From Candidatus Nealsonbacteria bacterium (lineage in GTDB: Bacteria > Patescibacteriota > Minisyncoccia > Minisyncoccales > RBG-13-36-15), in assembly GCA_011050465.1 (NCBI GenBank), contig DRFQ01000009.1, forward strand, positions 192,334 through 256,333: 64,000 nt of DNA. Direction: 5' to 3'. A program made the position numbers and the translations under genes. Shown here piece after piece: positions 44,794 to 46,823 of the stretch. The notes under the pieces were generated by a model. The model searched no databases. It saw only the letters and a list, made by a program, of their open reading frames with translations, and was not told the DNA's origin. Each line of letters opens with the position of its first letter. Positions within the stretch are counted from its first letter, which is position 1.

Positions 44794-44914
44794 ATTTTTA
44801 CTGCTGCTCTTAATTTAGCCGACCTTGATCGAGGATTGACTCGAATTTCTTCAGGGCTTGGCCTGACCGGCTTTTTTGTTAAAATCTGAAGCTGTCCTTC
44901 CTTAGCCTTTTCTA
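44794..44914 (-). pseudogene. duplicated remnant of the rsmH 3' end
   Basis: About 95 nt are identical to 45772-45866. It would encode ...[41 protein letters not shown]. There is no start, and an in-frame TAA lies immediately upstream. Confidence 0.75.
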
Positions 44915-44940
44915 AGACTTATAAGTTGACACTTTTTCTA

Positions 44941-45750
44941 TCAGAAGAAGAGGGGTAATATTGAGAAGTTTCCTAAGGAAACAGCTAGTCGCACTATTTT
45001 ATTGATTGGTGAATCAAGTTCTAAAGCTGCTTTTAGATTTCCTGTTTGAGAATCAAATACAAATAAAACTCCAGGTTTTTCACCCCGATGACTGCGTCCA
45101 GTGACATAGACTATGTCAGAGGCGTCAACCCAGAGGCTTTCACCAAAGGTACCAAAATGTGGAACGAAATCTATATGGAATTGATAAAAAGGATCCTCAG
45201 ATAAATTAAATTTACGAATTTCATAACTTTCCCTATTTACAGCAGTAATTTTGACCGGAAAGCTTGTTAGCCATAGCCCATATGGTTTCCCTCTGGTTAC
45301 TCCATATGGAAAAATAAAAATTTCATTTCCTGTATCATAAGAGTAAATTGCCCCTGAAAAAATTTTCTTTGAAAGAGATTCGTCTGTCGTTTCAATTAAA
45401 GAAATCATATCAGATGGCAGTTCGTCTAAATACAATCTTTCTTCCTCATTATCCAAAATCCATCTTTTTGTGGAATTAAATTCTGAATCAGATACTTTAA
45501 TATGCCTTAAAATTTTCCAGTTTTTTGTGTCTATCAGCCAGATGGTTGGTTGAAAAGTACTCTTCCCATGATAAACGCAAAAGCAGTCTGAAGAGTAGTG
45601 CACACCACTATCAAAAACATAGAGTATATCTCCCTTTTTCGCTAAAGCTTCTGGACTACTACCTACCCCAATATTCATAATTGCTAAAAAGTAGGAACCG
45701 AAGATTAGAAAAAGAATTACTGGTAAAGCTATTAAGAACTTTTTTATCAT
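44941..45750 (-). CDS. hypothetical membrane-anchored protein inserted in the dcw cluster
   Basis: 269-aa ORF with an N-terminal TM helix and a beta-rich body. No recognisable family. Confidence 0.6.
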   Translation of the reverse strand: MIKKFLIALPVILFLIFGSYFLAIMNIGVGSSPEALAKKGDILYVFDSGVHYSSDCFCVYHGKSTFQPTIWLIDTKNWKILRHIKVSDSEFNSTKRWILDNEEERLYLDELPSDMISLIETTDESLSKKIFSGAIYSYDTGNEIFIFPYGVTRGKPYGLWLTSFPVKITAVNRESYEIRKFNLSEDPFYQFHIDFVPHFGTFGESLWVDASDIVYVTGRSHRGEKPGVLFVFDSQTGNLKAALELDSPINKIVRLAVSLGNFSILPLFF

Positions 45751-45767
45751 AATATATTTTAGTATGT

Positions 45768-46823
45768 CTATATTTTTACTGCTGCTCTTAATTTAGCCGA
45801 CCTTGATCGAGGATTGACTCGAATTTCTTCAGGGCTTGGCCTGACCGGCTTTTTTGTTAAAATTCTAAGCCTCGATACTATTCGCCTTTGGCGAAAGTAC
45901 GGGGCAGGCAATCCCGCCTTCGATAAATCTTCGGCGGACAAGTCGGCGGGCAAGCCCTCCTTAGCTTTCTCAAATTTTGTTTCGCAAACTTTGAGAGGAT
46001 TAGCCATTTTTTTGAAGAAATTTTTTACAATCCTATCTTCCAAAGAATGGAAAGAAATTATAACTAATCTTCCGCCTTTCCTTATGCTTTCCAGAGCCTG
46101 AGGAAGGGTTCTTTCTAGATTATTTAATTCGTCATTAACGGCGATCCTTAAGGCCTGAAAAGTTCTAGTGGCAAAATGGATACGGTTCCTCAAATATCTC
46201 TTTGGCACAACATATTTTATGGTTTCTGCCAGCTGGAAGGTGGTTTTAATAGGCCTTATGTTTCGTTTTTCAATAATACTTTCGGCAATAATCCGGGCAT
46301 ATCTTTCTTCTCCATAGTCCTTTAAGATTTTCTCTATTGCATCTTTTGACCAAAAATTGAGAATCTTCTCAGCAGTTAACCCCGTTAGAGGTTTGTTCTC
46401 TTTGTGCTTCCGCCAAGCCCCGTTGACCTTTAACGGGGTTAAAGGATTCTGAGGATTGTATCTCATGTCCAGGGGTTCATTTCTCAAAAAGCTGAATCCA
46501 CGACCCGACTCTTCCAAATGCCAGCTGGACATTCCTAAATCAAACAAAATTCCAGAGATTGGCCTAATTTTTTTAATGATCTCTTTTAGGTTGATATAGG
46601 AGTCTCGAACTAAAGTTAATCGTTTCCTAATTCCTGTGGCTTTCAACTTTTTATATAATTCCTGGTCTATTTCAATCCCTAATACTTTTCCTCTGGGTCC
46701 ATTTTTCTCCAATATGGCTAAACTGTGTCCTCCTTGGCCAAACGTACAATCAATAAAATTTTCGTTTGATTTTGGGTCAAGATATTCAAGAATTTCTTTC
46801 TGGAGAACAGGGATATGAATCAT
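45768..46823 (-). CDS. rsmH: 16S rRNA (cytosine1402-N4)-methyltransferase
   Basis: HIPVL, DCTFGQGGHS, FDLGMSSWHLE, GRGFSF, RTFQALRIAVNDEL, ISFHSLEDRIVK and [10 protein letters not shown]. Carries two extra in-frame segments. Confidence 0.9.
   Translation of the reverse strand: MIHIPVLQKEILEYLDPKSNENFIDCTFGQGGHSLAILEKNGPRGKVLGIEIDQELYKKLKATGIRKRLTLVRDSYINLKEIIKKIRPISGILFDLGMSSWHLEESGRGFSFLRNEPLDMRYNPQNPLTPLKVNGAWRKHKENKPLTGLTAEKILNFWSKDAIEKILKDYGEERYARIIAESIIEKRNIRPIKTTFQLAETIKYVVPKRYLRNRIHFATRTFQALRIAVNDELNNLERTLPQALESIRKGGRLVIISFHSLEDRIVKNFFKKMANPLKVCETKFEKAKEGLPADLSAEDLSKAGLPAPYFRQRRIVSRLRILTKKPVRPSPEEIRVNPRSRSAKLRAAVKI
45872..45956. repeat. about 84-nt GC-rich repeat inserted in frame in rsmH (C-terminal region)
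   Basis: Present in rsmH but absent from the duplicated remnant at 44794-44914. Contains sub-palindromes ttcgcctttggcgaa and ggcaggcaatcccgcc. Encodes LPADLSAEDLSKAGLPAPYFRQRRIVSR. Confidence 0.7.
46376..46442. repeat. palindromic element, ccccgttagag family, inserted in frame in rsmH
   Basis: 17-bp inverted repeat ttaaccccgttagaggt / acctttaacggggttaa (one mismatch). Shares ccccgttagagRtttgttctctttg with 5119-5178. Encodes about NPLTPLKVNGAWRKHKENKPLTG. Confidence 0.7.

Follow-up and report, generated by a model that had tools for sequence, protein, structure and literature searches.

A lineage-specific gene insertion between rsmH and ftsL of a Candidatus Nealsonbacteria bacterium, flanked by a duplicated and mosaic rsmH 3' end

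Gene order and an additional gene in the rsmH-ftsL interval

The order mraZ-rsmH-ftsL-ftsI of the division and cell wall (dcw) cluster is among the most conserved gene strings of bacteria. In a stretch of 64,000 nucleotides (nt) from Candidatus Nealsonbacteria bacterium, referred to as the window and used for all coordinates given here, this string contains an additional open reading frame (ORF) between rsmH and ftsL, which encodes a protein of 269 amino acids (aa) and is termed the cargo. The intact rsmH gene lies on one side of the cargo ORF and a second copy of the rsmH 3' end on the other, and the ORF represents an insertion specific to this lineage, the string being unbroken in ~95 related loci. 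These comparison loci comprise a single sister sequence (L007), taken as a proxy for the resident rsmH allele, the loci L008 and L009/L010, 80 GTDB species representatives and 10 metagenome contigs. The genes and gene remnants of the cluster, all located on the minus strand, are the following, in the order of transcription:

46848-47279, minus strand: mraZ, first gene of the string (Pfam MraZ, E 9.4e-36; DNA 82-98% identical to L007)
45768-46823, minus strand: rsmH, intact, 351 aa (Pfam Methyltransf_5, E 8.8e-96; protein end ...AAVKI*, stop codon TAG at 45768-45770)
44941-45750, minus strand: cargo ORF, 269 aa (810 nt), with no Pfam or PHROG family
~44770-44916, minus strand: rsmH 3' remnant (pseudogene), recognized by its homology to the rsmH 3' end
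44715-44763, minus strand: hairpin upstream of ftsL, an inverted repeat in the native intergenic region, also present in L007 (~1560-1600)
44351-44704, minus strand: ftsL-like gene, 117 aa, in a position common to L007, L008 and L009 (weak NCBIfam FtsL match, E 0.022)
42626-44332, minus strand: ftsI, encoding a class B penicillin-binding protein (PBP; Pfam Transpeptidase, E 2e-67, and PBP_dimer, E 8e-14)

This dcw order is kept in the relatives, with MraZ, RsmH and the PBP assigned by Pfam and the identity of ftsL resting on its position, its conservation in relatives and the NCBIfam match; the first 65 aa of the ftsL-like protein are 92% identical to those of L007. The sister sequence is the closest relative at the DNA level, with 92-98% identity over most of rsmH, the intergenic region and ftsL, and in it rsmH is followed directly by the matching intergenic sequence and ftsL, with no insert. 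Furthermore, a single RsmH C-terminus is found in each of L008, L009/L010, the 80 GTDB species loci and the 10 metagenome loci. The gap between rsmH and ftsI measures 270-700 nt in nearly all loci in which ftsI was found, leaving room for ftsL only (the exceptions being L059 and L060), compared with ~1.44 kilobases (kb) in the window. A first-pass annotation of this DNA had proposed that a 269-aa gene was inserted into the mraZ-rsmH-ftsL-ftsI string, and the comparison with related dcw loci, which lack the cargo gene, bears this out.

The source of the window is a metagenome-assembled genome (MAG), and the k=31 Logan unitig L006 ends within both copies of the repeated rsmH segment. Both facts could be taken to favour an artefact of assembly, with variants from different strains merged, or linked into a chimera, at a 92-nt segment that they have in common, although such breaks inside both copies are also expected of a true repeat. 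However, independent assemblies agree on the structure. The cargo ORF and RsmH match the Candidatus Nealsonbacteria MAG GCA_011049515.1, and a region of 6.6 kb is 100% identical in four other assemblies, namely a 362-kb contig of the Joint Genome Institute (JGI), two MEGAHIT k127 contigs from separate runs and the NCBI MAG. A fifth assembly derives from another sample and represents a 99.9%-identical strain, and both repeat copies are present in all five. The junctions are supported at read level, because the 127-nt k-mers of the MEGAHIT contigs are longer than the 92-nt segment and span it together with its flanks. Moreover, an artefact would not yield an intact 810-nt ORF between frame-preserving orthologous flanks. 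An assembly artefact is thus hardly credible, and it was rejected on the agreement of the five assemblies and the k127 contigs that run across the repeated segment.

Additional features were observed in the surroundings of the insert. The hairpin 5' of ftsL, with the letters TTTAAACATC...GATGTTTAAA, is kept in L007 and may be a regulatory element for ftsL, and AACAT-type motifs recur in the rsmH-ftsL spacer of several relatives. When the locus was scanned for promoters and terminators, sites resembling promoters were no commoner than in shuffled sequence, and only one weak terminator-like site was found on the coding strand, within the cargo ORF. Both in the window (41130-44332) and in related loci, the dcw string of these Nealsonbacteria-like genomes ends after ftsI, 3' of which small ORFs and a tRNA-Glu are located, with no murE, mraY or ftsW there. 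The stretch from clpB to mraZ differs in gene content from relative to relative and, thus, constitutes a flexible spot beside the conserved string.

A duplicated rsmH end with reciprocally mosaic flanks

The two copies of the rsmH end form a direct repeat of 99 nt with three clustered mismatches (44794-44892 / 45772-45870), whose longest exact run, referred to as the core, extends over 92 nt (44794-44885 / 45772-45863). A repeat of this length is far above chance expectation in 64 kb, and the other long repeats of the window are unrelated intergenic elements only. Weaker homology continues past the exact core on both sides. It covers ~20 nt located 3' of the rsmH stop codon, including a 3-nt indel, and on the other side of the core it resumes at the codons FEKAKEG if a GC-rich stretch of 84 nt is skipped. 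The first-pass annotation had described a repeat of about 95 identical nt from the rsmH 3' end, with similarity continuing beyond it apart from an insertion; the direct repeat is real, with an exact run slightly shorter than stated, and the extended similarity is confirmed by a remnant of ~44770-44916 in which the 84-nt stretch is skipped. The parts of both copies, in the order of transcription, are the following, where the flanks on either side of the core are designated a and c, and the suffixes R and D stand for resident-type and foreign-type (donor) sequence:

45954-45974, minus strand: a_R, resident-type left flank of the upstream copy, codons FEKAKEG, agreeing with L007 at each of the 3 sites that distinguish it from the remnant copy
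45870-45953, minus strand: in-frame GC-rich stretch of 84 nt (57% GC), present in the functional rsmH only and absent from the remnant
45772-45863, minus strand: upstream 92-nt core, exact repeat, covering the last 31 RsmH codons (ILTKKP...AAVKI)
45751-45771, minus strand: c_D, foreign-type tail with the last Ile codon, TAG and a 17-nt spacer to the cargo ATG, disagreeing with L007 where the remnant tail agrees
44917-44940, minus strand: spacer of 24 nt from the cargo stop codon to the rsmH-like remnant, with no rsmH similarity
44886-44916, minus strand: a_D, foreign-type left flank of the remnant, encoding EKAKEGQLQ, with no GC-rich insert and, relative to a_R, four synonymous differences and one variable-site codon
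44794-44885, minus strand: downstream 92-nt core, part of the rsmH remnant, with no canonical in-frame start codon
44770-44793, minus strand: c_R, resident-type tail, ...KIV* and native intergenic start, collinear with the rsmH end, intergenic region and ftsL of L007 (91-100% identity)

Divergence between the copies is distributed unevenly, with no mismatch in the core and 11 mismatches at 45 positions in the flanks (Fisher p 1.5e-6), which are ~20% diverged. The core is bounded on one side by a net indel of 81 nt, as the 84-nt insert replaces one codon, and on the other side by the 3-nt indel. Five codons in the flanks differ by a single base, each time synonymously (GAG/GAA, AAA/AAG, GAG/GAA, GGC/GGA and ATA/ATC), and the sole non-synonymous codon, AGA/CAG, is located at a site that is variable among relatives. 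Moreover, the protein end of the remnant (...AAVKIV*) corresponds to a normal RsmH C-terminus devoid of the insert, as found in P0008, P0047 and P0103. Because the flank differences preserve codons and the remnant junction is that of a normal insert-less RsmH, both flank versions appear to have evolved as working genes. The remnant would therefore be more than a decaying copy of the resident end, its differing parts having probably evolved as working genes in separate lineages.

These observations bear directly on a duplication in situ, in which the rsmH end would have been copied at the moment of insertion, by a long staggered break or by template switching, and the copy would have decayed while concerted evolution kept the core identical. 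The indels that bound the core on both sides do lie where conversion tracts would be expected to stop. However, five synonymous differences out of five would be rare (p ~0.01 or less, as a rough estimate) if most changes had taken place in a decaying pseudogene, and the left flank of the remnant, which lacks the GC-rich insert, differs from the sister sequence, whereas that of the functional copy agrees with it. Likewise, a comparable remnant of clpB in a related genome, described below, retains both its frame and its stop codon. A duplication in situ is thus regarded as very unlikely.

Comparison with the sister sequence further resolves both copies into halves of different type. The left flank of the upstream, functional copy is identical to L007 at 6/6 informative sites and its tail disagrees with L007, while the left flank of the remnant, a_D, differs from L007 at 6/6 informative sites and its tail agrees with L007 at the CGT indel and at one more site, continuing then into L007-like intergenic and ftsL DNA. 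The foreign-type tail c_D resembles the native start of the rsmH-ftsL intergenic region at ~16/19 positions, with a 3-nt deletion. Reciprocal chimerism, that is, an upstream copy with resident left and donor right parts and a downstream copy with donor left and resident right parts, is therefore what is seen, based on 6 left-flank and 2 tail sites in short tracts and on one sister sequence. Because the copies are reciprocally mosaic with respect to L007, the foreign DNA appears as one contiguous block, c_D-cargo-a_D, between two cores. In addition, because the copies differ like orthologous alleles outside the core, each of them being half resident and half foreign, one rsmH 3' end is likely to have arrived together with the cargo.

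A foreign rsmH end could also have arrived by displacement of the resident C-terminus through homology-facilitated illegitimate recombination. In such an event, a linear fragment containing the 3' part of a relative's rsmH and the cargo would recombine within rsmH, and its far end would be joined illegitimately at a point ~145 nt short of the resident stop codon; the original 3' end would come to lie downstream as an orphan, and the core would be homogenized by later gene conversion. This route needs only linear DNA, as transformation delivers, and it is consistent with a remnant that has an intact reading frame and a native tail, as well as with patchy imports at the locus. Moreover, orphaned 3' ends located past displaced gene tips are known from effector loci of Rhs proteins and type VI secretion systems (T6SS), for which this mechanism has been proposed (PMC5361080). 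Nevertheless, under displacement the upstream 3' region should be foreign throughout and the remnant resident throughout, which is contradicted by the left flanks, since the upstream one equals L007 at 6/6 sites and that of the remnant does not. A separate conversion event would also be required for the exact cores in both the rsmH and the clpB cases. Displacement is, therefore, considered unlikely.

The rsmH gene contains small inserts that are of interest in their own right. The 84-nt stretch (45870-45953) is located in a variable linker before the conserved RsmH C-terminus, and its 3' half is identical at ~44/46 nt to the same rsmH site in L009 (5830-5880), even though the proteins are only 63% identical. 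A different, palindromic GC-rich insert occupies this site in L007. The position gives the impression of a hotspot of small, structured inserts that preserve the reading frame. The stretch was rejected as a multi-copy mobile mini-element, as the window contains one copy and, among the loci examined, it is otherwise present just in rsmH of L009/L010, at the same site. A second insert, located at 46376-46442, is palindromic and in frame, with 17-nt arms that are 94% complementary, and adds ~21 residues to the protein (LTPLKVNGAWRKHKENKPLTG). It is absent from the near-identical strain L102 and from the sister L007, and two distant RsmH proteins, P0007 and P0013 (57-60% identical), have a homologous insert in this position. 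This second insert lies inside a patch of ~150 nt that is 58-73% identical to L007 and L102.

Cargo protein, neighbourhood and route of insertion

The cargo protein consists of an N-terminal transmembrane helix, a beta-rich middle and a short hydrophobic C-terminus, in agreement with the first-pass annotation, which had predicted an N-terminally anchored, beta-rich protein with no recognizable family. The latter also holds, as no Pfam, PHROG or significant NCBIfam family was assigned to it, and one real homologue was found. An exhaustive HMMER scan of 1.84 billion cluster representatives retrieved P0122 as the only clear homologue (41% identity, E 3e-40) and P0123 as a weak one, both with hydrophobic C-terminal stretches longer than that of the cargo; word-index searches with the cargo protein and with a profile of the three sequences retrieved no further family members. 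P0122 is encoded on a 2-kb contig, directly upstream of a fructose-bisphosphate aldolase gene and outside a dcw context. Since P0122 is a real homologue, a de novo (orphan) origin of the cargo was rejected, although the family is tiny nonetheless. A marginal similarity to YncE/YVTN-type beta-propellers is below all thresholds, with a match to NCBIfam 7_blade_YncE at E 0.0085 (14.9 bits, cut-off 400) and a profile match to the PDB entry 3vgz at E 0.0011 over ~100 residues. An AlphaFold2 model built from the three-sequence alignment reached a predicted local distance difference test score (pLDDT) of 48.8, too poor for a fold search. A phage or plasmid origin was rejected as well, because the cargo has no relatives among the viral contigs, phage and plasmid records of IMG/VR, INPHARED and PLSDB and no match among PHROGs. 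The GC content, the GC content at third codon positions (GC3) and the codon score of the cargo are within the host range, which makes them uninformative as a test of foreignness; this host-like composition is compatible with a donor that resembled the host in this respect, or with an insertion that is old.

The insert is compact and contains no machinery for its own mobility. Neither in the insert nor among the neighbouring products with a Pfam family, which were surveyed over 10 kb on each side, was a recombinase or transposase found, several small ORFs in this region having no family. The insert ends have no terminal inverted repeats, and the spacers that flank the cargo ORF measure just 17 and 24 nt. 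A transposon or insertion sequence (IS) with target-site duplication was thus rejected, given that there is no transposase and no inverted repeat pairing the insert ends, and that the repeat comprises at least 92 nt with diverged homologous flanks. An integron cassette was rejected on the basis of the 24 nt that separate the cargo stop codon from the remnant and of the lack of an integrase within 10 kb, with no formal attC model run.

The layout is also reminiscent of integrative elements such as e14 and phage 21, which insert site-specifically at icd and bring along a new end for the gene. The insert could accordingly be what is left of an element of this type directed at the rsmH 3' end, its integrase and other parts having since been deleted, or its integrase acting in trans. 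A gene 3' end at both ends of the insert, a hybrid gene upstream and a C-terminal pseudogene downstream correspond to the icd/icdC arrangement around e14 (PMC13626634). Moreover, the functional rsmH has a foreign-type tail and the remnant a native-type one, as expected of a replacement 3' end, a feature that is shared by the homologous recombination model. However, in addition to the lack of a recombinase in the insert and among its Pfam-assigned neighbours, the insert consists of one ORF that is flush with both repeats, the cargo has no relatives among viral, phage and plasmid sequences, and homology extends beyond the core on both sides. The clpB case is likewise devoid of a recombinase. The remnant of such an element is, in consequence, quite improbable here.

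What is observed directly is the insertion with its empty counterparts in relatives, the mosaic of the two copies, their codon pattern and the lack of mobility genes. The exact core, the codon-preserving diverged flanks and the reciprocal resident/foreign mosaic constitute a footprint in three parts that is unusually legible, and it therefore points to a route by homologous recombination with DNA of a related lineage, with no integrase, transposase or phage involved. On balance, and with moderate confidence, we favour a Campbell-type insertion-duplication that proceeded by homologous recombination without a dedicated recombinase. The first-pass annotation had left a choice between a specific insertion mechanism and a recombination event, in combination with a target duplication; a recombination event is the best explanation, while the target duplication does not stand, as the flanks differ like orthologous alleles and are reciprocally mosaic.

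According to this model, a small molecule from a related Nealsonbacteria-like lineage would have carried ~145 nt of its own rsmH 3' end, consisting of a_D, the core (b) and c_D, the latter including the first 20 nt of its rsmH-ftsL spacer. This donor segment would have been joined head-to-tail to one cargo gene, either as a circle of ~0.98 kb or as the same unit opened within the homology ('ends-in'). We infer that it entered by natural transformation and that the exchange depended on RecA. One reciprocal crossover with the resident rsmH inside the core would insert the whole molecule, generating on the minus strand the order resident rsmH body, a_R, core, c_D, cargo, a_D, core, c_R and ftsL. 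As a result, rsmH would remain intact, with its last codon and stop codon now foreign, ftsL would retain its native upstream region, and the cargo would presumably be read within the operon transcript. The exact core may represent an exchange or gap-repair tract, if the incoming homology was broken or gapped and was repaired from the chromosome; alternatively, its identity could be due to a later conversion confined between the two bounding indels. Because c_D shows homology with the native rsmH-ftsL spacer over the first ~20 nt of the latter, the cargo of the donor would already have been located just downstream of rsmH. The cargo unit may, thus, either have been established earlier at the rsmH address in another lineage or have moved between lineages.

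Two further lines of evidence concern the feasibility of such exchanges. Within a backbone that is 92-100% identical, rsmH contains two patches of ~150 nt that are 46-73% identical to L007 and L102, and these divergent patches appear to provide independent evidence of frequent homeologous recombination at the locus. Natural competence and integration of linear DNA with homology arms of ~1 kb, designed so as to promote homologous recombination, have been experimentally shown in another group of Patescibacteria, the Saccharibacteria (PMC10633639).

Several points weigh against the Campbell-type model. No donor genome with the cargo beside rsmH was found, the homologue P0122 adjoining the aldolase gene instead, and the same population yielded neither a circular form nor one with an empty site. 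A search of JGI metagenomes with a degenerate core pattern for empty-site or alternative-junction variants of the species yielded none among 10 loci, all of which belong to less closely related bacteria (RsmH 44-58% identical) and show the canonical order wherever they include the junction. The flanks that bear the mosaic are short (~20-30 nt each) and provide ~8 informative sites in comparison with one sister sequence. Furthermore, crossover is inefficient between sequences that are ~80% identical, as these are outside the core, and a plain reciprocal exchange leaves the core identity unexplained, so that gap repair, mismatch correction or later conversion is needed. Finally, the composition of the cargo is indistinguishable from that of the host and gives no independent sign of foreign origin, although this is expected for a related donor.

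Elsewhere in the window, two groups of repeats were observed. Between 14960 and 24240, a modular intergenic repeat of 70-250 nt occurs five times, at ~14997, 17112, 20966, 22507 and 24125, the copies sharing sub-modules in varying combinations and separating blocks of minus-strand genes, which encode a CHASE-PAS histidine kinase with two response regulators, a PIF1-like helicase and a GIY-YIG nuclease. These repeats have no Rfam match and could be regulatory leaders, elements resembling miniature inverted-repeat transposable elements (MITEs) or footprints of serial insertion. At 62940-63380, a long run of degenerate tandem repeats of 15 nt and 33 nt (GGTTCTTC...) lies within a coding region and probably belongs to a low-complexity, Pro/Glu-rich surface protein encoded on the opposite strand.

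A second case at clpB, significance and comparison with known systems

A second arrangement of this kind was found in the related locus L009 (1070-3104), as well as in L010, where clpB is followed by two genes, one encoding a bPH_2 domain and the other TSP3 repeats, and then by a second clpB 3' end. The exact core of this repeat comprises 137 nt, and the flanks of the copies exhibit synonymous and conservative changes and an in-frame 3-nt indel beside the stop codon. Both copies keep the stop codon, the clpB remnant keeps its frame, and no recombinase is present in the clpB insert of L009. The full structure derives from one k141 assembly, the JGI contig L010 ending inside the upstream copy. 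As judged from these sequences, the anatomy of the clpB case appears to match that of rsmH. A scan for remnants with the C-terminal 45 aa of 977 ORFs, across ~1.1 Mb of related loci, retrieved as strong cases only rsmH in the window and clpB in L009; events of this kind are thus recurrent, yet not common. In L067, a 126-nt repeat (2052-2177 / 5705-5830; 92% identical) flanks two genes of unknown function and covers the last 42 nt of a TspO/MBR gene together with intergenic sequence. It could be a third footprint of insertion-duplication or a palindromic intergenic element, and it looks more like the latter.

The ultra-small genomes of Patescibacteria contain few classical mobile elements, and the clpB instance suggests that insertion-duplication is a recurring way for these bacteria to gain envelope genes. 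The clean, non-disruptive insertion at rsmH shows how a highly conserved string can accept a gene, and the combination of an intact gene with an orphaned copy of its 3' end further downstream provides a signature with which other genomes can be searched. A more far-reaching reading, which we put forward tentatively and consider doubtful, is that Patescibacteria may harbour homology-addressed cassettes. These would be recombinase-free units of one or two accessory genes coupled permanently to a copy of the highly conserved 3' end of a housekeeping gene, such as rsmH or clpB, that could be looped out as small circles by RecA-mediated recombination between the repeats, spread by transformation and be re-inserted by a single crossover at the conserved address. 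If this were the case, even rigid operons such as dcw could gain and lose genes reversibly and undamaged, and units able to excise and re-insert in this manner would represent a minimal form of mobile DNA.

The elements of this mechanism have precedents. Campbell-type or 'ends-in' integration of a non-replicating molecule that contains a chromosomal fragment belongs to the standard genetic methods for transformable bacteria and yeast. In this process, one reciprocal crossover generates a direct duplication around the insert, a diverged fragment gives rise to resident/donor chimeras, and, where the homology has a gap, repair from the chromosome leaves an identical tract. Whereas such integrations are known as laboratory constructs, the rsmH case would be natural, with the end of an orthologous gene providing the targeting and a single accessory gene as cargo. 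The staphylococcal cassette chromosome SCCmec at the 3' end of rlmH (orfX) also resembles the present insert, as it occupies the 3' end of a gene for an rRNA methyltransferase, leaves that gene active and has direct repeats on either side. However, it depends on Ccr serine recombinases and has repeats of ~15 bp and a size of 20-60 kb.

A closely similar layout is that of e14 and phage 21 in icd of E. coli, where, as in rsmH, the 3' end is present twice, the upstream hybrid is intact and the displaced end forms a C-terminal pseudogene downstream (PMC13626634). Excision of e14 recombines the two copies of the icd 3' end (PMC13626634). In contrast to the rsmH insert, the prophage e14 spans 15 kb, encodes a site-specific recombinase of its own and is excised upon SOS induction. 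The rsmH insert, in turn, consists of one 810-nt ORF with no recombinase seen nearby, and its homology extends to both sides of the core, with both halves of the mosaic visible. In the displacement events known from Rhs, contact-dependent inhibition (CDI) and T6SS loci, incoming DNA is anchored in a conserved part and the old 3' end is orphaned downstream, as observed here (PMC5361080). However, in those systems the new tip differs in function, bringing a toxin together with its immunity gene, and the orphans consist entirely of resident sequence, whereas rsmH is a housekeeping methyltransferase gene in which a codon or two have been replaced and whose orphan is itself chimeric.

A further parallel is provided by the merodiploids of Streptococcus pneumoniae, in which a transforming fragment containing a chromosomally repeated sequence pairs alternatively and gives rise to a duplication (PMC3784515). 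By analogy, pairing of this type is a possible route by which linear DNA could bring a repeat-flanked insert into a naive genome, although the pneumococcal duplications are tandem, extend over 100-900 kb and arise between IS-derived repeats, while the rsmH insert measures ~1 kb. Thus, a repeated gene 3' end around an insert is already known from integrase-driven elements and from single-crossover integration in the laboratory. What is new in the present case is a natural event, with no recombinase seen, that placed a single gene in the dcw core of a bacterium of the candidate phyla radiation (CPR) and that combines a legible donor-recipient mosaic with a parallel at clpB.

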